This document shows positions 10,986 through 29,386 of a DNA stretch of 57,648 nucleotides, in pieces. The stretch is from Malacoraja senta. Its lineage: Eukaryota. How positions within the stretch are numbered: the stretch's first letter is position 1; each line of letters opens with the position of its first letter. The position numbers and the translations under genes are program-made. The notes beneath the pieces are model-generated. The model did not search any database, was not told the origin of the DNA, and saw only the letters and a program-made list of their open reading frames with translations. The DNA lies in the NCBI GenBank assembly GCA_038087875.1, contig JAXLNO010003753.1:1-57648 (forward strand), read 5' to 3'.

Positions 10986-11023
10986 ATACATTTAATTTAA
11001 TATCGAGTAGATGTAAGGAGGAA

Positions 11024-11761
11024 TGAAAAAGTTACTTTTATAACAACTAAACAGGTTCGCTTCTTAATAAACAGACACCACACAAACTGTTTGGTAGACC
11101 AGTTCAAAACTTTACTTAACATCGGCCGATGGAAGGGAGCGAGAATTCCAGCTAAGTGACCAATGTAGACACTCGACTGTCCTCGGTCCCCTTCTCTGAA
11201 CAACAGAATTACATTGTCTTAAATAGTTTTTTTTTGTCCCCTTAGCACATTCCACAGACATTAGTCATGGTCAGAGGTACAGGAAAATGTTTCCACAGAA
11301 TGCATCACATCAAAGGCCTTTTGTTTACATGGTACAAGATATACTAAAAACATTGGCCATTTGTTTTAGGTCATTTTATCTTCAAAGAGATCACCCTAGC
11401 TCTTTCGCTGCTTCCTCTCTGTCACTTGGTTCCTCATAAACATAGGCCATTTGGTTCATGGCATCTTACTTCAAAGATGTGACTAGCTGTTTCTCTCTTC
11501 CTTTATCGCCTCCTCCCCCATAAACATTGGCCATTTGTTTTATGGCATCTTACTTCAAAGATGTGACTAGCTGTTTCTTTCTCTGTCACTTCCTCACTTG
11601 GGAGACAAATGTTATAGTATTTATTATCTCAATACCCCAAAACCCGAGGCAACTTAACTTGCCTTTCTGTATTATTCTACTGGAGAAAAGCCTGATTTGA
11701 GACTAAATATAAGCTGTAAGCTTTTCTTATATTTTTAACATAATTCAGCTTTATCATTCCA
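11024..11761 (-). mobile_element. ERV family A LTR, copy 1 (3' LTR)
   Basis: Homologous to 15953-16684 and 18337-19068. TG...CA termini on the minus strand; purine-rich PPT-like sequence at 11762-11771. Confidence 0.85.
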
Positions 11762-14700
11762 TCCTTTTATCAAAATCTTGATAATAACTACAGTCCTTGC
11801 CGAGTACATACAAAAGACCATAAGCATCTCATCAGGCAAATTATCTCACTGTCTGTAGTCAGGGTATCTTTGCTGCACTTGTCATGTTTGACTCCAATCT
11901 TGTTTAAAAGGAGGTGTGTACCATCCTTTAAATGTGGGTTAGTCCGCAAGTTTGCCATTCTGAAGAAAGTCCAGTCCATGTGGGCCACCCCAGAATAAAA
12001 GGAGGGTCAATAGCCCATTGTCCTTTCTTGTTTCCACAAACTGTTCACAGTCAATCAAATGTATCCAACGACGATGATCTTCAATCTTCACAGCAGTTTA
12101 TGTTGTTGATAGCACTTGGTTGTTCCTTTCAACACAATCTCAATTTCTTCTTGTCCCAGCACATGGTCATTTTGTAGCCTTTATGGACTCGTCCCTGTGC
12201 TCACTGATTTTCAGCCCAGCTCCTCTAACCTGGGAATGCAGATCTGGCAAGACCTGGGTTAATTGCTGTCCATACATAATTAGTTAATTGCCCGGGGCCT
12301 GTAGGTGGCTTCCCCCCACTCTCCAGGGGGTGGGCACAGCAGCCTTTCCTGAATCAATAAAAAAGTTGTAAATCCTGTTTCTCTAGCTGCAGTTGAATAA
12401 CCCCAATCTACTCTGAAGAAGGGCTTCGGCCCGAAATGATGCCTATTTCCTTCGCTCCATAGATGCTGCCTCATCCCCTGAGTTTCTCCAGCACTTTTGT
12501 CTACCTTTGATTTTCCAGCATCTGCAGTTCCTTCTTAAACACTTCTCTGTGAACTTATTCTTTAATCCGATTATATCTGAAGAGGCTCTCCCCACCTAAA
12601 TATTAAATTCTCCAAATATGTTCTCTTCCCCAATCTACTTATTTTCTCACCTTTTATCCCTCATTGTGAGTTCCCTTAAACCCCCTTTTGTAAGCCATAA
12701 GACAATTTTACATGTACATTCATTTCCCTTACACAGCACATGCTTCAACACCTTTGTTCGTCTGCAGACTGTAATCTTGCTTCATTTGCATTTTAAAGGA
12801 CAACCTCTGTTATCACATCAAAACAATCTTTCCCAAAAGAACTCACTCAGAATCAGTAATCAATAATACATTTTCTTTTTCTCTGTAATTTTGACATTTC
12901 CAATCTCATTTAACACTTTAATTGGGATGAGTCTCTTTTTGAACTCGGCTCAAAAGATTTATAACAACCAACACATTTTATCATTTGAGTATAGCTCCAC
13001 CCCCCATTCATGGCAGTGTCTTAAAGGAACACACCATAACCTGCCTGTTCATTTGCATTTTAAAGGACAAACTGTTCTTAAAGGGACTCACACCTTTGCT
13101 CATTGCTTCAAATTTCACACATTCCACATACAAAAAACATTGTTTTACAAGCAGTACATACACAAAGAAAATTGTTTTACCAGCAGTATATAATATTTCA
13201 TCTTCAAAGACGTCTCTTTGTAATTTACTTTCCCTTTTTCTGACAAGACTTCTGTTTACCAGAATCCTGGTTACCTAACCCTAATTGGACTTTGATCCAG
13301 ATCATGATTAGTCAGACTCCCCGTGACTTTTCAGTCTCCCTATCCTATCCTCATTTCTCCACCGAATTTGTCTTCATCCCCAATTTTTTTATAACATAGT
13401 TGCTTGTCAGAAAAAGGATTCCCCCAGGGTAATTTTGTTTTGCAATGCCCCATAGGCTCTTTCCACCATCCCAGATGCCTGTGGGTGATGTACACAGTGA
13501 AATTGCTGTCGGATATAAAAATGTGTACATATTTCCTTATGAATAGTGGCAATAAAATGGGGACCATTGTCCGCTTATGACTAAAATCACTAAGCAATAT
13601 TTATAACACTGGGCCCTTGGCATTTCAACAAAATCAATCTGTATGCATTCAAACGGTCGTGATGGCATTGGCGTCACCCCTGAGGGTATCTTAATTGGTT
13701 TGCCTCGATTACTTCGTTGGCAAATTTTACATTCAGAGGCCTGCTTCAGTGCCTCTTGCCGAATTTTCAGGTGCCACCACGTTTCCTTTGTCATCCTTAT
13801 CATTCCCTCCTTACCAGCATGGGTAAGTGAGTGAATATATGTTAGTAAAACAGGTAAAAATGCATCAGATACACCAACTTGTCCAAGCGGGGTGAGCCGA
13901 ATCAATGGCACAGCCCTCTTGTTTCCATAGTTGTTTTTATATGAGGCGTCCCTCTGTAATGTACATACCTCCCTCATGTTTGGCAGGACCGTTCTATTTG
14001 CTAGTATCTGTTTACCTGCTGTCACTAAGCATTTGTATGCATAGGCTGCTTGCTTGGATACACTATCGGCAAATGCATTGCCTTTTGTTATAGGGTCCCC
14101 AGCACCAGTGTGTGCAGCACATTTAATAATGGTCAGCTGTTCTGGTATCATCAATGCCTTAAGCAAATAACGCACAGAAAGGCATTCCCGTGCTCCCAAT
14201 CCTGGGGAGCTTTGTAAGGTCAGAACTTTAAGGTATAGGGATATTACTGACGGAGCTGTCACAGGTAAGTATGCCATCGCTACTGGTAGGACGTAGGGAG
14301 GCGGACATCTCCCAAGATTATCTAACTCCTCATCTTCACTACCAAACAGGGTCGTCGTGCCAGACATGAAGTCTCCTCCAGAGGATTTACCAGTACTGGG
14401 TTTATTTTTACTAACCATCACCTGTTTCTCACTTCCTGCCTGTCTCTTAATTATTTTCTCTTGTTCCTCCGTCCACTGGCATTCTAGTTGCAATACTTTC
14501 CATCCTTTCATAGTGCCATCCTTATTTCGTAACTCTATCCCTTGTTTACATGCAGTATCCATCCAACTTCGATCTCTACTCTCCTCATGCTTCTTCTCTG
14601 CTTCTGCTTTCCACGTTTTAATTCCCTTCTTCCATTTCTTTCCTGCCTTCCTTTCCCATATCAACATCTCTGCTTTTTTAATTGTCTCGACATTCCATGT

Positions 14701-14958
14701 GCCCCCTACTGGCACGGCTTCATTCCCCAACCGTTTGGTCAACTTGTAACTTAACATTCTAAATTTCGTATTATACTTAGGATTCAAATAACACATATGT
14801 TGGACGGGGGTTCCCCCCTCACTGTTATCCAGAGCATTCCCCATAGATAGATAGAGAGAAAGAGAAAGAGAACGCAGACTTCTTAATTCCGAATCGCTCC
14901 AAATATATCAACCAGGCCGACTCGCTACTCGAGACCCCAGTTTCTCAATTTGGCTGAC
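11762..14958 (-). mobile_element. ERV family A internal region (deleted; leader end, gag::pol fusion, AT-rich non-coding region)
   Basis: 14868-14958 is the reverse complement of the leader segment at ~17395-17480. Contains the retroviral ORF 13537-14844 and a short repeat inserted at ~12405-12545. Confidence 0.8.
13537..14844 (-). CDS. gag-pol: Open 435-aa retroviral gag(MA/late domain)::RNase H-integrase N-terminal fusion
   Basis: Starts MGN (potential myristoylation) and has a PPPY late domain. Continues in frame into IIKCAAHT...GNAFAD (RNase H C-terminus), HSLTH...CKIC (integrase HHCC) and QIDFVEMP (start of the integrase core). Confidence 0.8.
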   Translation of the reverse strand: MGNALDNSEGGTPVQHMCYLNPKYNTKFRMLSYKLTKRLGNEAVPVGGTWNVETIKKAEMLIWERKAGKKWKKGIKTWKAEAEKKHEESRDRSWMDTACKQGIELRNKDGTMKGWKVLQLECQWTEEQEKIIKRQAGSEKQVMVSKNKPSTGKSSGGDFMSGTTTLFGSEDEELDNLGRCPPPYVLPVAMAYLPVTAPSVISLYLKVLTLQSSPGLGARECLSVRYLLKALMIPEQLTIIKCAAHTGAGDPITKGNAFADSVSKQAAYAYKCLVTAGKQILANRTVLPNMREVCTLQRDASYKNNYGNKRAVPLIRLTPLGQVGVSDAFLPVLLTYIHSLTHAGKEGMIRMTKETWWHLKIRQEALKQASECKICQRSNRGKPIKIPSGVTPMPSRPFECIQIDFVEMPRAQCYKYCLVILVISGQWSPFYCHYS

Positions 14959-15952
14959 TAGGCTAGATGTGTTGCAGGCAAAGGCTTTGAGGCTTTGCTG
15001 TGGAGCCTTCAGGACTTCCCCAGTCCCTGCCCTGATTGTTGAAATGGGAGAAATGCCCTTATGGTTAAGGCGCATTAAGCTAGGGTTACATTACTGGGCT
15101 AAACTTTGTGGGTGTAATGATACCTTCCCAGCAAGGTGTTTGTTGCAAGTGGTTGATGATGGTAACAAATATAACACATTTTTTGTCATTATAAATCAGT
15201 GGGCTAGGAAGCTGGGTTTGGAACAAGGGGGTATTATAGAGCATACAATAAGGCTACCTGTGCCCTATTGGGTTCTTCCTGAACTGTTTATTGAGCTTGC
15301 TTTTCTTCAGGAAAAAGATAAGCGCGAGGTGACTCCAAGAATAGTGGAATATCTTAATTCAATCAGTGAGAGCAATTTGATTGTTTTTACAGATGGATCT
15401 AAAGATCCAGTTAGTGGGAGAGCTGGGTTTGGAGTGTATGTGGAGCAGCTTGGGTTGAAGATTGGCCGGCGCATTTCTGATGGAAGTTCTGTTCTCACGA
15501 CTGAATTAATGGCAATTCAATGGGCTCTATGGTGGATTGAGGAAGCCAGTTTTAGAGAAGTCATTATCTGTTCTGATTCTGCAGCTGCTCTTGAAACTTT
15601 AAGAGTAGGGAAATCTAAAGCTCGTCCTGACATTCTAAATGAAATCTTGAGTGTGTTTTCTAGAATTGGGTTTGCGTGTAACATCACTTTTTGCTGGGTT
15701 CCCGGGCATGCTGGGGTGAGGGGGAATGAGCAGGTGGACCTCATAGCAAACGAGAGTTTAAGAAGAGAAATAGATAACCATGTATTATTGGGGAGAGTGG
15801 AACTGAGAGAAATAATTAAAGAGGGCTTAACAAAATAATGGCAGAGAGGATGGGAAATGGAAGTCAGGGGTAGACACTACTTTTCTTTACAATCTGAAGT
15901 TAGGAAAATATGTTTCTGTACATCTCTGTCCCGTAGGGACTCAGTTAAACTG
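14959..15952 (+). mobile_element. Inverted duplicate of the RNase H part of the I/Nimb-type LINE
   Basis: ORF 14969-15838 has the same translation as the corresponding part of 19183-20148 (FTDGSKD, TELMAI, ICSDS, WVPGHAGVRGNEQVD). Confidence 0.9.
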
Positions 15953-16684
15953 TGTAAATGATAAAGCTGAATTATGTTAAAAATATAAGAAAAGCTTACA
16001 GCTTATATTTAGTCTCGAATCAGGCTTTTCTCCAGTAGAATAATACAGAAAGGCAAGTTAAGTTGCCTCAGGTTTCGGGGTATTGAGATAATGAATACTA
16101 TAACATTTGCCTCCCAAGTGACAGAGAGGAAGCAGAGAAGAAGCTATGATAAGCTATGAGATGTAAAATGCCTTGTACCAAATGTCCGATGTTTATGAGG
16201 GAGGAGGTGATGAGAGAGGAACCAGGGAAGTGGAAAGATAAGATGCCATAAACCAAATGGCCTATGTTTATGAGGGATCAAGTGACAGAGAGGAAACAGC
16301 GAAAGAGCTAGGGTGATCTCTTTGAAGATAAATTGACCTAAAACAAATGGCCAATGTTTTTAGTATATCTTGTACCATGTAAACAAAAGGCCTTTGATGT
16401 GATGCATTCTGTGGAAACCTTTTCCTGTACCTCTGACCATGACTAATGTCTGTGGAATGTGCTAAGGGGACAAACAAACCCTATTTAAGACAATGTAATT
16501 CTGTTGTTCAGAGAAGGGGACCGAGGACAGTCGAGTGTCTACATTGGTCACTTAGCTGGAATTCTCGCTCCCTTCCATCGGCCGATGTTAAGTAAAGTTT
16601 TGAACTGGTCTACCAAACAGTTTGTGTGGTGTCTGTTTATTAAGAAGCGAACCTGTTTAGTTGGTATAAAAAGTAACTTTTTCA
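15953..16684 (+). mobile_element. ERV family A LTR, copy 2 (5'-type)
   Basis: 732 bp, tgtaaatg...ttca, followed directly by a PBS; mirror image of 18337-19068. Confidence 0.9.
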
Positions 16685-16685
16685 T

Positions 16686-16702
16686 TGGCGTAGTTATGCA
16701 GG
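16686..16702 (+). promoter_or_regulatory. Primer binding site, tRNA-Ser-like (degenerate)
   Basis: tggcgtagttatgcagg versus the tRNA-Ser complement TGGCGTAGTCGGCAGG. Mirror copy at 18319-18335. Confidence 0.65.
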
Positions 16703-17632
16703 CCTCGCTGGGACCACATCAACGGCTGACTGTGCAAGAGGTTGCAGAGGTTGCCGGGATTGGAAGGGAGATAACTGAGCTCTATCGGCCCCCTTGTAAG
16801 ACCGACTCCCTAGAAACTCCCGGGAACGTCTGTGATCCTTCATCAGAGGTTGATCCAGGTTCCCTGCCGAGGTTCTTAGAAACAGACCAAGGTAAGACCA
16901 GTTGGGCTTTATAGGGTTTTTTTTTTTAAGAAGGGATTGTGTATGTAATTTTTAGACAGAATTGTGCATGTATTTTTAAGAAGGGCTTGTGTATATTGTT
17001 AAGAAGGACGTGAGTGGTTTCTCTTTCTCTCTCTCTCTGTCTATCTCTCTTTGTTTTCTTTTTTTTTCTTCTCTCTCTCTCTCTACTAAGGGCTCATCGG
17101 CCTCGTTGAGATATCCGTGATTTGTCGGGTTGAGATACGGGGGTTGAGGTGTGCGTCTGGCTTATTGAGACATCCGAAGAGTTGTCGGATTGAGACATAA
17201 GTGGCGTTGTATATTAAAGAGTAAGAAGTCTGCCAGGTTGAGAAACGGGGGTCTTGGTTAGCGGGTCTGCTTCGTTGAGACACATGGGGCTTTTTTTAGG
17301 TCTGCCAGGTTGAGAAACGGGGGTCTCGGTTAGTGAGTCGGCCTCGTTGAGACACTTGGGTCGTATATCAAAGAGGTTAAAAAATAAATAAAAAAGTCAG
17401 CCAAATTGAGAAACTGGGGTCTCGAGTAGCGAGTCGGCCTGGTTGATATATTTGGAACGATTCGGAATTAAGAAGTCTGCCAGGTTGAGAAACGGGGGTC
17501 TCGGTTAGCGGGTCTGCTTCGTTGAGACACATGGGGCTTATTTTAGGTCTGCCAGGTTGAGAAACGGGGGTCTCGGTTAGCGGGTCGGCTTCGTTGAGAC
17601 ACTTGGGTCGTATATCAAAGAGGTAAAAAAAA
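16703..17632 (+). mobile_element. ERV-A 5' leader with internal tandem units
   Basis: Repeated gtctgccaggttgagaaacgggggtct(c/t)ggttag units at ~17227, 17300, 17476 and 17547. Confidence 0.8.
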
Positions 17633-18335
17633 TTTTTTTTTTACCTCTTTGATATACGACCCAAGTGTCTCAACGAGGCCGACTCACTAACCGAGACCCC
17701 CGTTTCTCAACCTGGCAGACCTAAAAAAAAGCCCCATGTGTCTCAACGAAGCAGACCCGCTAACCAAGACCCCCGTTTCTCAACCTGGCAGACTTCTTAC
17801 TCTTTAATATACAACACCACTTATGTCTCAATCCGACAACTCTTCGGATGTCTCAATAAGCCAGACGCACACCTCAACCCCCGTATCTCAACCCGACAAA
17901 TCACGGATATCTCAACGAGGCCGATGAGCCCTTAGTAGAGAGAGAGAGAGAAGAAAAAAAAAGAAAACAAAGAGAGATAGACAGAGAGAGAGAGAAAGAG
18001 AAACCACTCACGTCCTTCTTAACAATATACACAAGCCCTTCTTAAAAATACATGCACAATTCTGTCTTAAAATTACATACACAATCCCTTCTTAAAAAAA
18101 AAAACCCTATAAAGCCCAACTGGTCTTACCTTGGTCTGTTTCTAAGAACCTCGGCAGGGAACCTGGATCAACCTCTGATGAAGGATCACAGACGTTCCCG
18201 GGAGTTTCTAGGGAGTCGGTCTTACAAGGGGGCCGATAGAGCTCAGTTATCTCCCTTCCAATCCCGGCAACCTCTGCAACCTCTTGCACAGTCAGCCGTT
18301 GATGTGGTCCCAGCGAGGCCTGCATAACTACGCCA
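17633..18335 (-). mobile_element. ERV-A PBS and leader (right arm of the inverted duplication)
   Basis: Reverse complement of ~16686-17380 with only isolated differences. Confidence 0.85.
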
Positions 18336-18336
18336 A

Positions 18337-19068
18337 TGAAAAAGTTACTTTTTATACCAACTAAACAGGTTCGCTTCTTAATAAACAGACACCACACAAA
18401 CTGTTTGGTAGACCAGTTCAAAACTTTACTTAACATCGGCCGATGGAAGGGAGCGAGAATTCCAGCTAAGTGACCAATGTAGACACTCGACTGTCCTCGG
18501 TCCCCTTCTCTGAACAACAGAATTACATTGTCTTAAATAGGGTTTGTTTGTCCCCTTAGCACATTCCACAGACATTAGTCATGGTCAGAGGTACAGGAAA
18601 AGGCTTCCACAGAATGCATCACATCAAAGGCCTTTTGTTTACATGGTACAAGATATACTAAAAACATTGGCCATTTGTTTTAGGTCAATTTATCTTCAAA
18701 GAGATCACCCTAGCTCTTTCGCTGTTTCCTCTCTGTCACTTGATCCCTCATAAACATAGGCCATTTGGTTTATGGCATCTTATCTTTCCACTTCCCTGGT
18801 TCCTCTCTCATCACCTCCTCCCTCATAAACATCGGACATTTGGTACAAGGCATTTTACATCTCATAGCTTATCATAGCTTCTTCTCTGCTTCCTCTCTGT
18901 CACTTGGGAGGCAAATGTTATAGTATTCATTATCTCAATACCCCGAAACCTGAGGCAACTTAACTTGCCTTTCTGTATTATTCTACTGGAGAAAAGCCTG
19001 ATTCGAGACTAAATATAAGCTGTAAGCTTTTCTTATATTTTTAACATAATTCAGCTTTATCATTTACA
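18337..19068 (-). mobile_element. ERV family A LTR, copy 3 (5' LTR)
   Basis: 732 bp, near-identical reverse complement of 15953-16684. Confidence 0.9.
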
Positions 19069-21262
19069 CAGTTTAACTGAGTCCCTACGGGACAGAGATG
19101 TACAGAAACATATTTTCCTAACTTCAGATTGTAAAGAAAAGTAGTGTCTACCCCTGACTTCCATTTCCCATCCTCTCTGCCATTATTTTGTTAAGCCCTC
19201 TTTAATTATTTCTCTCAGTTCCACTCTCCCCAATAATACATGGTTATCTATTTCTCTTCTTAAACTCTCGTTTGCTATGAGGTCCACCTGCTCATTCCCC
19301 CTCACCCCAGCATGCCCGGGAACCCAGCAAAAAGTGATGTTACACGCAAACCCAATTCTAGAAAACACACTCAAGATTTCATTTAGAATGTCAGGACGAG
19401 CTTTAGATTTCCCTACTCTTAAAGTTTCAAGAGCAGCTGCAGAATCAGAACAGATAATGACTTCTCTAAAACTGGCTTCCTCAATCCACCATAGAGCCCA
19501 TTGAATTGCCATTAATTCAGTCGTGAGAACAGAACTTCCATCAGAAATGCGCCGGCCAATCTTCAACCCAAGCTGCTCCACATACACTCCAAACCCAGCT
19601 CTCCCACTAACTGGATCTTTAGATCCATCTGTAAAAACAATCAAATTGCTCTCACTGATTGAATTAAGATATTCCACTATTCTTGGAGTCACCTCGCGCT
19701 TATCTTTTTCCTGAAGAAAAGCAAGCTCAATAAACAGTTCAGGAAGAACCCAATAGGGCACAGGTAGCCTTATTGTATGCTCTATAATACCCCCTTGTTC
19801 CAAACCTAGCTTCCTAGCCCACTGATTTATAATGACAAAAAATGTGTTATATTTGTTACCATCATCAACCACTTGCAACAAACACCTTGCTGGGAAGGTA
19901 TCATTACACCCACAAAGTTTAGCCCAGTAATGTAACCCTAGCTTAATGCGCCTTAACCATAAGGGCATTTCTCCCATTTCAACAATCAGGGCAGGGACTG
20001 GGGAAGTCCTGAAGGCTCCACAGCAAAGCCTCAAAGCCTTTGCCTGCAACACATCTAGCCTAGCCAGAACAGTTTTAGACGCAGACCCATACACAAAACA
20101 CCCATAGTCAAGAGAAGATCTGATCATGGCCTGATAAATTAGCAGCATTGTCTCCCTGTTGGCCCCCCACTCACACCCAACTCATAACATTCAGAACTTT
20201 TTCACACTTCAACACAATTTTACCTACATGCACAGCCCAAGTCATACGCTCTTCAAACCAAACACCCAAAAACTTAAAAACCTTTACCTTCTCCAATAGA
20301 GACCCATACATATACAGCCCTAACTTAGGTAACTTTCTTTTAAAACCAAATACCATATATTTAGTCTTAGAGGCAGAGATTTTAAAGCCCCATGTGTTCC
20401 CCCATTCCTCTACAGACACTAACACTCTTTGAATCTGTTTTAAAACAAACTCTACATTACAACCTCTTTTCCAGATGGCCCCGTCATCTGCAAACAAATA
20501 CAGACCAAATCCTCTCTCTAATTTACAAAATATGTTGTTTATCATGATATTAAATAAAACTGGACTGATAACACTTCCCTGCGGGGTTCCATTCTCTATT
20601 TCTACACTCTCTGATCTGACACTACCAACCATTACTTGTATTGTTCTATTCAATAAAAAATCCTTAATCCAGTTGAACATTCGTCCCCTGACTCCCAAGT
20701 CAAAATTTTTAATCATTAATCCCTCCTTCCACAAAGAATCATATGCCTTCTCAATATCAAGGAATACACTCACTACTGTTTCCTTGCTTCTAAATGCCCT
20801 TTTAATATCCTGATCCCAAACTGATACAGACTCCATTGTAGACCTTCCATTCCTAAAGCCATTCTGTACATCAACCAATAGTCCTCTGGTTTCTAAAAAA
20901 TATACTAGTCTGTTGGTTACCATCCTCTCCATAATTTTACAGAGCACTGCTGTGAGCGCTATAGGGCGATATGAACTAGGGTCAGATGCCTCTTTGCCCG
21001 GTTTTAAAATAGGGACCACGACTGCATGTTTCCATTCCTTTGGTAAATAACCCTCTGCCCACACAGTATTAAACAAAGCTAAGATTTCATCAAGTACATT
21101 ATCATCCAGATGTTTAAATAACTCATACGACAACCTATCTCTCCCCGGGGTGGTATTTGCCCCAGACATAATTGCATCCTTCAACTCTTTTATGGTAAAA
21201 AACAGATTAAAGGTATTATCATTTACTAAACTCCTCTCCAGCTTCCACTGATTAACTGCCAG
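19069..21262 (-). mobile_element. Non-LTR retrotransposon of the I/Nimb group (RT + RNase H), truncated and frameshifted
   Basis: ORF 20171-21292 has SYRPIALT, FLDIEKAYD, GTPQGSVISP and LFADD. ORF 19183-20148 has the RNase H motifs. There is a small deletion/frameshift near 20170, and the element is cut by the ERV LTR at 19068. Confidence 0.85.
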
Positions 21263-21432
21263 CAGATGCTGGTTTAAACAGAAGATAGGCACAAAAAGCT
21301 GGAGTAACTCAGCAGGTCAGGCAGCATCTCTGGAAAAAGGAACTACAGATGCTGGTTTATACCAAAGATAGACACAATAAGCTGGAGAACTCAGCCAGTC
21401 AGGCAACATTTCTGGAGAAAAGCAATAAGTGA

Positions 21433-21973
21433 TGTGAGAAAGGGGTTAATAGGTATAAGTTGATTTAGACAAGAACCCTTTGTATAGTAGGGAGTATAGT
21501 AGGGAGGATAGGGGGAGTGAAGAACGAGTACAGATGGTGACTTTTTCAAGGATGAGAACCGAGAAGATAGCAACAGCCCAGCCAAGAACTAGGGTAAGGG
21601 TCAGGAGAAACACTCAGTGCGCATAGGCAATGAACTTACATGAATATGTACACACACCCACTATGACAAGATGTCTCATTTAAATGCACATGCGATGCAT
21701 GATATGGGAGGTGTCTTTGACGTCGGGTGGACGTTCCAGGACGTTCTCGTGGGAATGTGGGCTTTATGTTATGATTGGAAGAAGCACAATGGGGAGGGAT
21801 GAGGGTGTGACAGTGATACCCATGAAATGTATAAAGATAGAAGTCATCCCGATCCTCGGTGTGCCTCTAGGGGACATCAGAGGAGAGGCACCTATTCTGC
21901 AGAATATGATTTGAATAAAAAGCTTCTTTGCTGACTTTGTCTCTAAAAGCGTTTGTGATTTTTGAATCTCACA
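21433..21973 (+). repeat. ERV-B 5' LTR
   Basis: TATA-like tataaa and AATAAA in order; 4 substitutions counted by eye against the 3' LTR. Confidence 0.95.
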
Positions 21974-21978
21974 ATTTT

Positions 21979-21996
21979 TGGGGGCTCGTCTCGGGA
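21979..21996 (+). promoter_or_regulatory. Primer binding site, tRNA-Pro
   Basis: tgggggctcgtctcggga versus canonical TGGGGGCTCGTCCGGGAT. Confidence 0.9.
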
Positions 21997-22319
21997 CCCC
22001 CACTCCGGCTGGCTGACGACGGTATACGGAAGAAAGGACGGTGCACCCCGTTGATTTCAGCGGTCCCAGACCCCTAGATTGTCGTCAGCGGTTTGGGCGA
22101 GTGGTATCCCTGAACAGAGACTCAGCAAAGAAGTGGGAGTAGTTGGAAATCCGATCGGGAGGAAGATCGGGGGGAAAATCGCGAGGGAGCCAAATCGAGT
22201 GATTCTTGTGCACAGGACCCGGGTAAGAAAACTGACTATTAAGTACTACTCGGGCGATTTATAGATCTGAGGTAAACAGATCGGGGGCAAACAGATCGGG
22301 GGGAAATTCCGATCGGGAG

Positions 22320-24520
22320 GATGGGCCATGAGAACGGAAAGCCCACCAGGGAGGGGAAGGGCGGTAAGCCCGACCCCAGCATTCTGCCTGATAGTCCGTT
22401 GGGGCGAATGCTGAGCCTCTGGTGGCAGGGAAATACCCAGGGAATTGGAAGACAAAAATGATTTGATTCTGTTATTTTGAGTTTTAATACATGTAAAAGA
22501 TGTTGCATTTATTTGAAGTAAGAATGGAACGAATGTGATTTGTGTGTAAAAACCAGTTTGGAATGAAAGAGGAAGTTTATATATGTGATAATTATTTTGT
22601 TTATTGTATTTGTAGACCACATTGTAAGAGTAAGTAAGTAAGTTTTATTAAAATCAAAAATGTTCACTGTAGGTAGGTGTATGTTCCTTTAAATAAATCA
22701 GGTCATGGTGAAAGGCGACGAACAGCTGTAAGATAATGATTAATTGTTTGTTGGCCTTAACCTAGAAGGGGAAGTTGTGAAACCAGCTTTTGTTTTTTCT
22801 GATGTTCTTTTAGATTTCTAGTCAGTAAAGATAATTTGGAGAATTGTTACTAGTGCTAGGAATTGGACATTTAAAATAGTGGTGAATATGGATTGAAATA
22901 ATTGGAAATAAGTTAATTGGTAAACATTCAAGTTTAGAAAGAAAGGAGAGAGAGGCAGTTAGAAGATAACAGAAGTAGAAAAACGACAGGCATGAAAGTA
23001 ATAAAGCAGGAGGAGTCAGTGGAAGATTTTTGCAAGGAGGCTAGAATATTTGAGAAGCAAGAAATTGAGTTTAGAATTAGAAAGAAGGCATACCAGAAAG
23101 GATTAAAGTTGGAAGCATTGGGATAAAGTGATGAGACTGCTTTAAAGAGAAAAGAGAAGGACAGACACGGATTATCCCTTGGGGCACCCATAAACTGAAA
23201 GGGCTAAAAAATACCTCACCCTATATCCCTGATGGGGGAGGAAATGGATTAGGGCTTTGGAGGAGGAGAACGTGGGACGATTATTGATCATGGAAGATTT
23301 GAAGGCACTGTTGGTAAAAGTGATAGGAAGCACTAAAGCGACAGAACTACTGAAGATGGATGGTATAAACTGATGCGAACAATGTAACAAGCAATGGCAT
23401 ACTGTTTGACACAGTCAGGCAGAGGGTATGGCAGACCCTCAGACCCCCAAGGAACAAGGGGAGATACAGAAGGAAAGGCAAATAGCCTATCTGGAAAACC
23501 AGCTGAAAAGGTGGAGAGTTGATTGATGAACATTATATTATGAACAACTGTGGTGGATGTCATTCTTCTTAAAGTCAAGCAGATTCAGCGAACAGTTGGT
23601 CTCTGCGGTCGAGAAATATCGCAAAGATAGGAAAAAGACTTGCAAACCAGCAGGAGGAGGTGTTGTCAATAAACAATGGACCTAAGTGAGTCCTATGACG
23701 GAACCAAGCAGGGCCAGAGAATTACATGCCAATAATGAATGTCTTTGGGGAACGTTTCCTCAAAAAGTCCTATCAGGAGTGAAATTAATCTGGATATAAG
23801 CCCTAACAGGACTGGGGTCCCCAAGAGAGAAAGGGATTTAAAGGAGGATTTGTTGGTATTGTTCCATAAGTAACAAGCGATGTAAGAGAGAGAGAGAGAT
23901 TTAAAAAAAAAATACTTCAGAATGTAGGACAGAGTATGATAACCTCAGGAAAAGGCAGGATATAGTTCAGACTAGATTAGGTATAAGCCCTGTAGTGTCG
24001 TTTATGATGAATAAGGTAATTAAGAGGTTTGGTAGACCTACAGAAACCGGCTTTGACAACGGATTGTTTTCATTTAGGGAGTAGCTAAGTTGGCGATAGA
24101 GACCCTTAGAGTAAAATACACATTTGGGTATGTAAGAATAAATGGAACATTGAAGGTTAATATAAATAAGATTTGTTTAATTACAAAGTTGAATTGGATC
24201 GATGCCCTGCCATTGGCACTGAAGAGATGTTGCATGCAAACTAACCGAGCAGGTGGCACAATGGAGAGGTCCCTACAAGAGACCGAGTTTGGAACAGTTA
24301 AAGATAGAATTTAAAAAGTATATGAAACAGTTAATTATGATATACAAGTCTATTTATGAACAGGAAAAGTAAAAGCTGTTGGAGGTGGACCAGGAGGAAG
24401 GACCCTTTAAACCTGAAGACAAGGTGTATGTATGAGTTTTCTAAACTACCGGCCGATGTTCAGGTAGAAGGTTGATATACCTGGTACCATTTCAATAATA
24501 CCTGAGGGCTGTCCCGCAGG
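22320..24520 (+). pseudogene. Highly degraded gag and integrase remnants of ERV-B
   Basis: MA-like PDSPLGRMLSLW (~22390); integrase core NGTLKVNINKICLITKLNWIDALPLAL (~24140-24220); integrase C-terminus PFKPEDKVYV...VQVEG.YTWYH (~24400-24490). Many stop codons. Confidence 0.7.
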
Positions 24521-24599
24521 TACGAATAGATAATAGCCCTGAGGTAAGTGAACAGGAGGACAAGAGATGTGAGAAAAGAGTAGAATTTGAACAAGAACG

Positions 24600-25525
24600 T
24601 TGTTTGACATCAGTGGTGGGCAAAATAATGGAAAGGATACTTAAGACAATATATAAGAATAGGGTAGGATTAGGAAGAATTAGCATGGATTTGTGATTGT
24701 GATGTTTGACTAATCTTGAATTTTTTGAAAAGGTTATTAGGGAAATTGATGAGGGTAAAGTGATGGATGTTGTCTAGATGAACTTCAGTAAGGCCTTTGA
24801 CAAGGTTCAATAAGGAAATAAGGTTGGTTAAGAAGGGTTAGTAAGGAATAGCAAGATGGAGTAAAAAGTGGCTGTATGGGAGATGTCAGAGAGCAATGGT
24901 GGATGGATGTTTGTCAGGTTGGAGGTCAGTGACTAGAAGGGTACCTCGGGGATGTGTGTTGGGTCCACTGTTGTTTGTCATGTGAATCAATAATCTGGAT
25001 GTTGGTGTGGTAAAATAGATTAATAAGTATGTAGATGATACTAAGATAGGTGGTGTTGTGAATAATGAAGTAGATTTTAAAAAGTGTACAGAGAGATTTA
25101 GGTCATTTGGAAGAATGGGTTGAAACATGACAGATAGGTTTAATGTTGATAAGTGTGAGATGATACATCTTGGCAGGACAAATCAAAATTGAATGTACAT
25201 GGTAAATGATTGTGAATTGAGGAATGAAGTTGAACAGGCGGATCTAGGAATAACTGTGCATGGTTCCCTGAAGGTGGAATTTCATGAAGATAGGATGGTA
25301 AAGAAAGATTTTGGTGTGTTGGCCTTTATAAATCAGAGCATTAAATTGTACAAGGTATTGGTGAGGTCAATTGTGGAGTATGGTGTATAATTTTGGTAGG
25401 CATAATTATAGGAAGGATGTCAACAAAATAGAGAGAGTACAGAGGAGATCAATTAGAATGTTGACTGGGTTTCAGCAACTAAGACACAGAGAAAGGTTGA
25501 ACAAGTTAGGTCTTTATTATTTAGG
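24600..25525 (+). mobile_element. CR1 RT fragment embedded inside ERV-B
   Basis: Decayed F.KAFDKV, G.P.G.VLGPLLFV and Y.DDTKIGGVV, and the IERVQRR..RML C-terminal region. No CR1 3' tail is visible. Confidence 0.8.
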
Positions 25526-25559
25526 AACGATAGAAGGGGTCCCAACAAATACAAGGGAA

Positions 25560-25917
25560 TGATGTATTCCTAAGGAACTATTTACTGGCAGTATCTCGTT
25601 CTATTACAGAATTAAGAACCAAGGGGCTGCTGGCACAGAGTCCCCATCTCGACTTTCCAATCCATTCTGTGAAAGCGGGGGACTGGGATCTTTTAACATC
25701 ATGGAAGGAAGAAAAGCTGCAACCTAAGTGGACTGGACCCTACCTGGTGTTACTAATCACCGAGACAGCAGTACGAACAAAAGAAAAAGGGTGGACACAC
25801 GCAAGCCGATTTAAGGGTCCTGTGGAGGCCCCACCAAACAATATCAGCCCGTGGACTGTGCGCAAAGGAGAGGAACCATTGACTTTAATATTTAACAAGA
25901 ACCCGCGGGAAAAATGA
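25560..25917 (+). pseudogene. pol: Second integrase C-terminus (3' end of pol)
   Basis: ELRTKGLLAQSPHLDFPIHSVKAGDW...PKWTGPYLVLLITETAVRTKEKGWTHASRFK, containing the GPY/F module. Confidence 0.85.
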
Positions 25918-26760
25918 AGATTTCGTGTTGGTGGGTCGTGTGTTGGGTGGTTACCCAACTATGTAAGCATACAGAGTGTTCAAATGCAGGAAAGTGGAAG
26001 GATGTGCAGATAGGGAGAATGAGCCTAAGGATTTGAAGATAATGATAGTAGCAGGAGAAACAGAATTAAGGCAATTATATGAGGAGGGAATACCTACAGG
26101 AGGGAAGGGAGCCAACACCTGGCTTGCCTGGATGATGTACATGGCCAGGAGTATGCAACACACCAATTGCTACGCCTGTGCCGGAGCTAAGCCTCAGCTG
26201 GTTCCAGAACCATTTCCCTTGAATTGGGATAGGACACCTGGGGCTATGTCATGTATACTACAGCTATTCACGAATCCCATCCTACCAAAGGATGCGACCT
26301 GCCAGAGTTATCATCACCTATTCCCGGCTAGCAACAACAATACAAAGGGCCGAAGGACAGCCCCTTCGACACACACATATATATAGATGCGATAGGGGTG
26401 CCAAGAGGGGTATTCGATGAATTCAAAGCCAGAAACCAGATAGCTGCGGGCTTTGAGTCCATACTCTTCTGGTGGTCCACACTTAATAAAAATGTGGACT
26501 GGATCAACTACCTATACTACAATCAACAACGCTTTATAAATTACACTCGAGATGCGGTTGAAGGATTAGCGGAACAACTGACAGATACCAGCCTAATGGC
26601 CTGGCAAAATCGCATGGCCTTAGACATGCTACTGGCTGAGAAGGGAGGGGTGTGTGTAATGTTTGGGGAACAATGTTGCACCTTCATCCCCAACAACACT
26701 GCTCCTGATGGGTCAGTGTCGAGAGCCCTAGCAGGTCTCACCTCCCTGTCTATCGAATGA
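25914..26760 (+). pseudogene. env: env remnant (frameshifted, SU internally deleted, TM truncated before the membrane anchor)
   Basis: Signal-like MKISCWWVVCWVV; SU NTWLAWM...NCYAC; TM YIDAIGVPRG...FKARNQIAAGFES, ISD QNRMALDMLLAEKGGVC and CX6CC (CVMFGEQCC); stop at 26758-26760. Confidence 0.9.
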
Positions 26761-26858
26761 GAGGAAGATAGGGAGAGGCGAGGATTCTGCTGCTAGCATT
26801 AGAGAAGGGGCAGATAGTCTAAATCAAAGATTGCAGTAGCAAAAGTAAAAGTGTGGAT

Positions 26859-27399
26859 TGTGAGAAAGGGGTTAATAGGTATAAGTTGATTTAGACAAGA
26901 ACCCTTTGTATAGTAGGGAGTATAGTAGGGAGGATAGGGGGAGTGAAGAACGAGTACAGATGGTGACTTTTTCAAGGATGAGAACCGAGAAGATAGCAAC
27001 AGCCCAGCCAAGAACTAGGGTAAGGGTCAGGAGAAACACTCAGTGCGCATAGGCAATGAACTTACATGAATATGTACACACACCCACTATGACAAGACGT
27101 CTCATTTAAATGCACAAGCGATGCATGATATGGGAGGTGTCTTTGACGTCGGGTGGACGTCCCAGGACGTTCTCGTGGGAATGTGGGCTTTATGTTATGA
27201 TTGGAAGAAGCACAATGGGGAGGGATGAGGGTGTGACAATGATACCCATGAAATGTATAAAGATAGAAGTCATCCCGATCCTCGGTGTGCCTCTAGGGGA
27301 CATCAGAGGAGAGGCACCTATTCTGCAGAATATGATTTGAATAAAAAGCTTCTTTGCTGACTTTGTCTCTAAAAGCGTTTGTGATTTTTGAATCTCACA
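26859..27399 (+). repeat. ERV-B 3' LTR
   Basis: 541-bp direct repeat of 21433-21973. Confidence 0.95.
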
Positions 27400-27678
27400 G
27401 TGATGTTTCGGAACGAGACCCTTTTTCAGACTGAGAGTCAGGGGAAAGGGAAATTATCTATAGATGGTGATAGAGAAATATAGAACAAATGAATGAAAGT
27501 TATACAACAAATCGATGCATTTTAAATCGATTACTCAGGAAGGATACAAGTCACATTTACCACTCTGACGGTGACACAAAAACATCTAGGCTTTGCAAGT
27601 AAGGCAATTTGTAATGGGATTATTCGTTTAATTAAAGCAAAAGTGTTTTGCATACTTCTGGCAGGAGTATTTTGTGGT

Positions 27679-29386
27679 ATTATCAGATGCTTGTAATCAT
27701 GGGAAATATTAATGCAGTTTGTCACCCTTGTTTGCATGCAATTCTACAGTAGTTTTTAATGTCCAATGTTCCAATGACAGTCTAGAGTTGTCTACGACTT
27801 GTGTCTGAGTCCTGTCATTGGTTGGAATGACCAGTACCTAAAACCAAGCATTCCACATCACCTCATCAGTGGAATCAATGCTACACTGCACGGTGTGCTA
27901 CCTTAGCAACGGAGCAGGAACAGTAACCCAGCTCTCACCTCTAGAATTCCATGTAAACTAAATGGTACAATTATATGGGGGATGTTGGGACAGAGACCGC
28001 TGCAGATGTACAAAGGCAATTTTTAACAATTGCAGAACAAGTTGGTTGAGTAGTCAGTTTAAAAAAGGAACACCGAACCTTTGGAACAGAGAAGCAAAGT
28101 ATAAAAGCAAGGTATGCTACGTTTTTACAAATCTCTTCTGCACAAGTCTGCATTAAACAGCAAGAATGGTATCAAGATGAAAGGTTTCACTTACATGAAA
28201 AATCCAAAGAAAGTGGGATTGTCGTGCTTAGAGAAGGTTAAAAGGAGAGTTCATAGATCAGTCAGGTACATACGGTTCTTGCCAAAGGCATAAAGGTTTC
28301 CAACCAAGGGATACTGATTTACTGAAAAAGAATCAAGGCAATACTTTTGATCTATTACGTGAAATAGCCAGGCATGTGTAAAGTATGCCTGGGAATCGCG
28401 AGACAATCCATTAATGACTTTGCTTGCCAGATTATAATTCATTCTTCATTACAGAAACTAAACAAGCATATGGCAAATTTGTTGTGCAGATCATCTAATT
28501 GAGGTATAGAAAAGTATTTATGGCACAGAATATAATTTTATATTCAGGAGGGAGGGACGGAATGCTGAGGCGCAACAAATTTGCCATATGCTTGTTTAGT
28601 TTCTGTAATGAAGAATGAATTATAATCTGGCAAGCAAAGTCATTAATGGATTGTCTCGCGATTCCCAGGCATACTTTACACATGCCTGGCTATTTCACGT
28701 AATAGATCAAAAGTATTGCCTTGATTCTTTTTCACTAAATCAGTATCCCTTGGTTGGAAACTTTTATGCCTTTGGCAAGAACCGTATGTACCTGACTGAT
28801 CTATGAACACTCCTTTTAACTTTCTCTAAGCACGACAATCCCACTTTCGTTGGATTTTTCATGTAAGTGAAACCTTTCATCTTGATACCATTCTTGCTGT
28901 TTAATGCAGTCGAGCAGACTTGTGCAGAAGAGATTTGTAAAAACGTAGCATACCTTGCTTTTATTCTTTGCTTCTCTGTTCCAAAGGCTCGGTGTTCCTT
29001 TTTTAAACTGACTACTCAACCAACTTGTTCTGCAATTGTTAAAAATTGCCTTTGTACATCTGCAGCGGTCTCTGTCCCAACATCCCCCATATAATTGTAC
29101 CATTTAGTTTACATGGAATTCTAGAGGTGAGAGCTGGGTTACTGTTCCTGCTCCATTGCTAAGGTAGCACACCGTGCAGTGTAGCATTGATTCCACTGAT
29201 GAGGTGATGTGGAATGCTTGGTTTTAGGTACTGGTCATTCCAACCAATGACAGGACTCAGACACAAGTCGTAGACAACTCTAGACTGTCATTGGAACATT
29301 GGACATTAAAAACGACTGTAGAATTGCATGTAAACATGGGTGACAAACTGCATTAATATTTCCCATGGTTACAAGCATCTGATAAT
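27679..29386. repeat. Long inverted repeat (fold-back) of unidentified sequence
   Basis: Arms ~27679-28487 and ~28570-29386 are reverse complements, with roughly a dozen substitutions and one 8-bp indel; spacer ~80 bp. Confidence 0.92.

Follow-up and report, generated by a model that had tools for sequence, protein, structure and literature searches.

The recKoRV elements are recombinants of KoRV and PhER (PMC6112702). In the parts of this source covered here, and the same scope applies to the other sources cited, their long terminal repeat (LTR), leader, gag start, env end and 3' LTR come from a competent class I virus, the interior comes from an older, degraded endogenous retrovirus (ERV), and many genomic copies exist. 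ETn/MusD and the non-autonomous mysTR elements (PMC10089650) are non-coding families more numerous than their helper, to which they are homologous at the ends alone, and ERV-Hako (PMC11905727) spread host DNA, part of the SUSD6 3' untranslated region (UTR), as non-coding ERV cargo. Class I-like ERVs have been described from cartilaginous fish as CmiERV (PMC4422223), and a strand-specific bias in RNA composition, of debated cause, is on record for retroviruses (PMC1224870). In each of these respects a likeness is seen in the ERV described here, which occupies positions 21,433 to 27,399 of a 57,648-nucleotide (nt) stretch of Malacoraja senta DNA (assembly GCA_038087875.1, contig JAXLNO010003753.1), hereafter the window. 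A preliminary description, made from the letters of the window, had read it as a young but internally decayed provirus, mobilised in trans, that copies a fragment of CR1, a long interspersed nuclear element (LINE), as cargo. Our results indicate that the element very probably represents a non-coding recombinant ERV of ~290 copies, with ends from a helper lineage (H) and a core from an older, distant lineage (Z) with CR1 inside, which H proteins probably package and copy in trans.

Structure of the provirus

From its sequence, the element reads as a mosaic of three parts: H ends, a Z core, and the CR1 piece within that core (Table 1). Comparison of the two LTRs confirmed that they differ at 4 of 541 positions and that the GTGA flanking each side is intact, as first described; paired LTRs with TG at the start and CA at the end, together with a 4-bp target-site duplication (TSD), are features of a non-autonomous class I ERV. 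The insertion target was a short host repeat, other copies of which in the window carry a single such site. The primer-binding site (PBS), assigned earlier to tRNA-Pro, indeed matches the tRNA-Pro(TGG) genes of the same genome except for one inserted base, and is thus a PBS for a host tRNA. A splice-donor-like site is found in the leader at 22223. The LTR itself is composite, positions 1-279 being 74-87% like one helper LTR type and positions 186-541 being 93-95% like another. The core comprises a gag remnant (23105-23847), an integrase core (23977-24248) and an integrase C-terminal part, without reverse transcriptase (RT) or RNase H, and env is broken by four internal deletions relative to the helper. 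The low LTR divergence behind the label "young" holds. However, the absolute age depends on the rate, since 0.74% divergence corresponds to ~17 million years (My) under the shark substitution rate assumed in PMC4422223 and to ~1.7 My under a mammalian rate, so that the provirus is young only in a relative sense.

Table 1. Parts of the provirus and its flanks, with positions in the window
Feature	Position	Strand	Basis
Left TSD GTGA, within short host repeat	21429..21432	+	Repeat comparison
5' LTR, 541 nt, composite of helper types	21433..21973	+	
PBS for tRNA-Pro, with one-base insertion	21979..21997	+	Comparison with genome tRNA-Pro(TGG) genes
Leader, 88% to lineage H; likely packaging signal (putative role)	21978..22290	+	
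gag start from H (94.6% DNA, 87.5% amino acids, aa), ending at 5' recombination joint	22291..22481	+	
Deleted, decayed core from lineage Z; cytosine (C) 12.6%	22482..24596	+	
CR1 LINE RT fragment, tail cut off; C 7.6%	24602..25522	+	Alignment to free CR1
Integrase tail from H: 87% DNA, open 127 aa, MLVIN_C	25523..25917	+	
env remnant from H: 97% DNA, TLV_coat match, membrane anchor missing	25914..26819	+	
Purine-rich tract preceding 3' LTR	26840..26858	+	
3' LTR	26859..27399	+	
Right TSD GTGA	27400..27403	+	

Copies of the element across the genome

The ~0.9-kb fragment within the core matched RVT_1 (E 1.9e-7, read with X at stops), and its RT domain is close to a family that is abundant and young in the same genome. 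We take this family to be CR1 from its RT and 3' end; repeat libraries lay outside the comparison. The piece is in sense orientation to the provirus and ~11-12% substituted relative to free CR1. Its 11 in-register stops fall in a frame that is open in one free copy, and it lacks the 3' UTR and tandem-repeat tail that are present in the free family and in the older Z form, which bears out the earlier account of a decayed, tailless fragment. In public runs, contigs of free CR1 end at these boundaries too, 24602 and 25522.

The preliminary description predicted that other proviruses would share this segment together with its breakpoints and stops, and this is what we found. The 28-base 5' CR1 junction has 288 matches in the genome at no more than one mismatch (control, 0). 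Of 40 scored matches with the CR1 segment, every one spans both junctions, and when loci were selected by the integrase tail instead of CR1, the 3' junction was present in 40/40 and the 5' junction in 33/40. Among 51 loci examined, the CR1 piece was whole in 39, partial in 11, and not recovered by the filter in one. Relative to a free copy the window has 105 substitutions, 90 of which are present in at least 90% of the 39 full segments and one of which is private, and each of the 11 stops recurs in 36-39 of these segments. The fixed changes are spread over the three codon positions as 31/37/24, so that the pattern is that of non-coding decay. These copies lie in ~30 different flank pairs, many with 4-bp duplications of their own. 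Their LTR mismatches range from 0 (four copies) to 20/514, and one core occurs with several LTR types. Since stops and substitutions are common to copies in different flanks, the decay of CR1 predates the insertions, as had been proposed. The lack of intact gag or pol, with lesions common to dispersed copies, is a further feature of a non-autonomous class I ERV; of the features compared, the family departs from such an ERV in one, a whole LTR in common with the helper.

A contrary explanation is that one old provirus decayed in place, had its LTRs homogenised by gene conversion, and was multiplied by segmental duplication. Some copies are in fact duplicates: L002-L005 and L007-L009 share flanks, 13 of the 14 loci L061-L074 look like a single insertion within a repeated unit, and C7 has a tandem array. 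This explanation is nonetheless scarcely tenable, since distinct flanks surround an identically broken interior and the junction matches are distributed over many contigs. Considering the ~30 flank pairs and the four copies with identical LTRs, gene conversion of a single old copy is excluded, and with it the alternative that the preliminary description had named.

The CR1 piece is a passenger. Its frame was not kept open, the stops being common to nearly all full segments, unlike the functional gene of a transducing retrovirus. That the piece was kept for some use, as a spacer, for export or as a decoy, or that forms with intact env complement env-broken helpers, is doubtful at best. Retention of the whole piece at most loci would agree with such a use, as would, for complementation, five CR1-bearing loci whose env frame is still 666-667 aa long, together with several helper copies that combine a long pol with a broken env. 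However, part of the piece was lost at 11/51 loci, its frame carries the common stops, and most copies differ in their env deletions.

Several loci deserve description in their own right. L061-L074, except L063, have one older CR1-bearing insertion without a 3' LTR that appears to have been multiplied inside a repeated unit; it occurs on many small contigs and adjoins a long open frame, upstream of it, that reaches 764 aa. The tandem array, L160 (G000:C7:26193279-26217216), has five family copies with a period of ~5.9 kb. Four listed copies there carry a truncated env frame of 394 aa; frames of this length are present at many loci and might specify a secreted Env. At L181:1490-1575 (G000:C1:60526410) and L182, the family LTR is followed by the reverse complement of a tRNA-length sequence and then by unrelated DNA, with no leader. 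This sequence has what we take to be a Pro-like 3' end and a Gly-like 5' end; ARAGORN called no tRNA gene in it, and it is possibly an aberrant primer copy. Among four runs of other organisms, contigs of one (X12, organism F) bridged the 5' junction with at least 31 letters per side and those of the other three nearly did so, and in a separate listing of run contigs none of the listed pieces bridged it by the 31-letter rule. These are thin hints that the family may be older than one species. Among the matches listed, none came from an RNA data set.

Origin of the core and surviving intermediates

In the core region, the only match to a DNA profile built from nine helper interiors was 22301-22482, and Pfam returned nothing relevant in the three frames of 22440-24601 read with X at stops; the gag identity of the core was obtained solely from a search against representative proteins. 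The core frame, read with X at stops, matched 39 proteins, either gag-like or integrase. The gag-like proteins have zinc knuckles and no Gag_p30, and two of the 39 are named from the stingray Hemitrygon akajei. A search with one matched protein led to a second ERV lineage in the same genome, Z, whose Pol is 32% identical to that of H. The stop-ridden gag and first integrase segment, initially taken for the provirus's own interior, are therefore decayed as described but of different origin: they belong to Z, and only 22291-22481 is H gag.

Among 18 Z stretches, L212 has the form of an empty site, matching the core to 24596 and then running straight into env. The 5' junction of the window recurs in L207-L209 and L211, where 1.39 kb of CR1 including the tail comes next and then the L212 sequence again, and the tail junction has 18 exact matches in the genome. 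LTR pairs were found in 6/13 loci with tailed CR1; they are 90.8-98.1% alike and unlike the LTRs of the window or the helper, and mostly a different primer site, presumably Ser-like, comes next. Since this 5' junction is accompanied by a complete tail in the older Z-type copies, the tail was lost later. Likewise, because the genome keeps both empty-site and tailed intermediates, CR1 was likely inserted into Z in the normal way, amplified, and then recombined into H ends. With its ends from one ERV and its interior from an older, different one, the family is a recombinant of the recKoRV type.

CR1 might instead have been captured directly into the present virus, by RT switching templates onto a co-packaged CR1 RNA. 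The sense orientation and the imperfect microhomology at the 3' joint between CR1 and the integrase tail are consistent with this, and because the original insertion site has no clear target duplication and five extra bases at the 5' end, capture by template switching could be accommodated. However, in the older Z-type copies the tail is complete and Z sequence continues from the empty site, and the usual form of a CR1 insertion is 5'-truncated with a tail. Direct capture is thus quite unlikely. The earlier idea that a LINE fragment was copied as ERV cargo stands, with the amendment that CR1 first sat, tail included, in Z.

The helper lineage and exchange of ends

An autonomous partner with the same LTR and PBS had been anticipated. 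A lineage with a tRNA-Pro PBS and open genes does exist: L077, the one locus among 26 of helper type with all three frames open, encodes gag (573 aa), pol (1180 aa) and env (667 aa) between LTRs that are 99.6% alike. Gag_p30, a TAG between gag and pol, and TLV_coat mark it as class I, and the best solved relatives of its RT are of the MLV/XMRV type. L077 matches the window in the leader, gag start, integrase tail and env at the identities given for H in Table 1, while across 22482-25518 it is unlike the window except for a 31-aa integrase stretch. Other copies of the family carry helper-type LTRs. L099 (G000:C5:82468950-82478949), which has identical helper-type LTRs, switches from the non-coding core back to helper gag. 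In a tree of integrase tails, built after dropping 13 duplicate loci, CR1-bearing copies appear at three places, and the env tree is poorly resolved. The L099 recombinant and the three tree positions are what co-packaging and template switching would leave.

These results suggest the following history. A CR1 of 1.39 kb, 5'-truncated but tailed, would have entered a deleted Z derivative that had none, likely through target-primed insertion of the ordinary kind, and the CR1-bearing form would then have been amplified under Z-type LTRs. Template switching with co-packaged H RNA probably supplied the H leader, gag start, integrase tail, env and LTR, and this switch would have removed ~410 nt from the 3' end of CR1. 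A second amplification would have followed, with continued exchange of LTR, integrase tail and env with H subfamilies, and along the replicating branches the cargo would have shed C from the RNA-sense strand.

Some observations speak against this recombinant history. The junction count includes segmental duplicates and possible haplotigs. The whole LTR of the window was found in 0/26 helper-type loci and in none of the 29 loci aligned after an LTR search, so that this part of the anticipated partner did not materialise. No Z copy with all frames open was present among the matches listed of the 18 stretches, and the original CR1 site has the irregularities noted above. Finally, the case for packaging and mobilisation in trans by helper proteins is indirect, coming from the recombinants.

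Loss of cytosine from the sense strand

The HIV genome is reportedly A-rich and C-poor. To score base changes in CR1, we used sites where 80% of free copies agree and 32 family copies. The fixed changes affected 41/103 C but 19/273 G, 14/276 A and 18/272 T, with 16 C>A vs 2 G>T, while of the private variants 14 were at C and 37 at G (fixed vs private, p 2e-5). The older Z copies, 12 in number, had shared changes at 28 C and 19 G and private ones at 36 C and 81 G (p 8e-4). The Z backbone, polarised using one coding Z copy, lost 38/149 C vs 17/229 G on the branch to the window, including 17 C>A and 1 G>T. From coding Z through L212 and L211 to the window, C content was 19.8, 16.4, 15.1 and 12.6%. 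Near symmetry was seen in 29 free copies and in two further CR1 copies at 93%. An apparent C excess in free CR1 (6% vs 3.1%, unfiltered) proved to come largely from sites at which the reference copy is peculiar, being 2.4% vs 1.8% after the 80%-agreement filter. Separately, four-fold sites in the free CR1 family (L110-L139) are also low in C (6.9% in a single copy), whereas those of the helper ERV are not.

Since chromosomal decay is strand-symmetric, the C bias likely acts during RNA-based copying. As for its cause, we lean towards selection for a C-poor cargo RNA, because C changed to all three bases and the synonymous sites of the helper keep their C. A close rival is bias in copying or damage. 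In this view the history is the same, but during replication C in the RNA or G in the minus-strand DNA is damaged or miscopied, or a deaminase acts on the sense strand; we consider this a real possibility that falls somewhat short of even. It would explain the strong excess of C>A over G>T that two segments show on the sense strand; private variants, being mostly post-insertion, would be symmetric here too, and there is a weak lean towards WRC (19/41 lost C vs 17/63 kept C). However, the changes of C to all three bases occur roughly in the proportions of ordinary variants, and a simple deaminase yields C>T only. Furthermore, sites lost twice to different bases number 14 vs 8.8 expected (p 0.012; for G, 5 vs 1.8), and the helper's synonymous sites keep their C.

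Selective loss of C during copying has to be set against several results that do not fit it well. Among variants common to subsets of the window family there is no bias towards C (6 C, 14 G), and L211 (p 0.23) and L221 (5/141 C, 7/399 G) show little or none. Four-fold sites of the helper are not C-poor (0.21-0.26). None of the motifs CpG, WRC, CAG and DRACH-like firmly explains which C were lost, and comparison of predicted pairing with lost C gave nothing firm (p 0.053).

Neighbouring sequence

Other repeats lie near the provirus. A minus-strand ERV remnant of another lineage, with RNase H and integrase matches and LTR-like repeats, occupies 11022-20067. It includes an inverted duplication (14954-17387 / 17633-20067; 2.4 kb at 99.7%) that is either a real fold-back or an assembly artefact. 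To the left of the provirus, 19183-21316 contains minus-strand frames for a non-LTR RT and RNase H (381 and 332 aa), and directly beside the provirus, at 27679-29386, are nested inverted repeats of 473 and 340 nt (98-99%).

Discussion

The M. senta family documents how non-coding DNA can pass between distant retroviral lineages within a single germ line, and fossil copies record the successive steps. Because free CR1, the donor family, remains abundant and has changed little, the passenger serves as a natural mutation-accumulation experiment: it separates sequence change in retroviral copying from change in the chromosome, and makes the question of mutation versus selection in retroviral base bias testable on sequence free of coding constraint. 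Tentatively, and with slightly less than even confidence in the statement as a whole, we propose that a LINE fragment rode two lineages 32% alike in Pol with every intermediate preserved, that non-coding retroviral cargo was selected to shed sense-strand C, and that C content may count replication history.

A literature search, which had Repbase, Dfam, subscription papers and supplements outside its scope, returned no report in which an ERV family amplifies a CR1 piece, none of a change of helper by an ERV family that carries a LINE, and none in which ERV cargo lost C from its sense strand. The part of the CmiERV report covered describes no non-autonomous, recombinant or LINE-bearing family (PMC4422223). 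Compared with recKoRV (PMC6112702), the M. senta interior also contains a LINE segment, forms from before the CR1 insertion and before the switch still exist alongside it in one genome, the ends were exchanged repeatedly, and strand-specific C loss can be measured. ETn/MusD and mysTR are class II elements with non-homologous interiors (PMC10089650), whereas in M. senta a donor was identified for every interior block. The cargo of ERV-Hako is a gene UTR (PMC11905727), whereas that of the present family is a piece of LINE RT which passed from one ERV lineage to another. The biases described for retroviruses (PMC1224870), and that reported for HIV, concern coding genomes, whereas the bias in M. 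senta lies on non-coding cargo with a known donor, and the helper's synonymous sites keep C. The class of mechanism is therefore known; the series preserved across two lineages and the loss of C from the sense strand are new.

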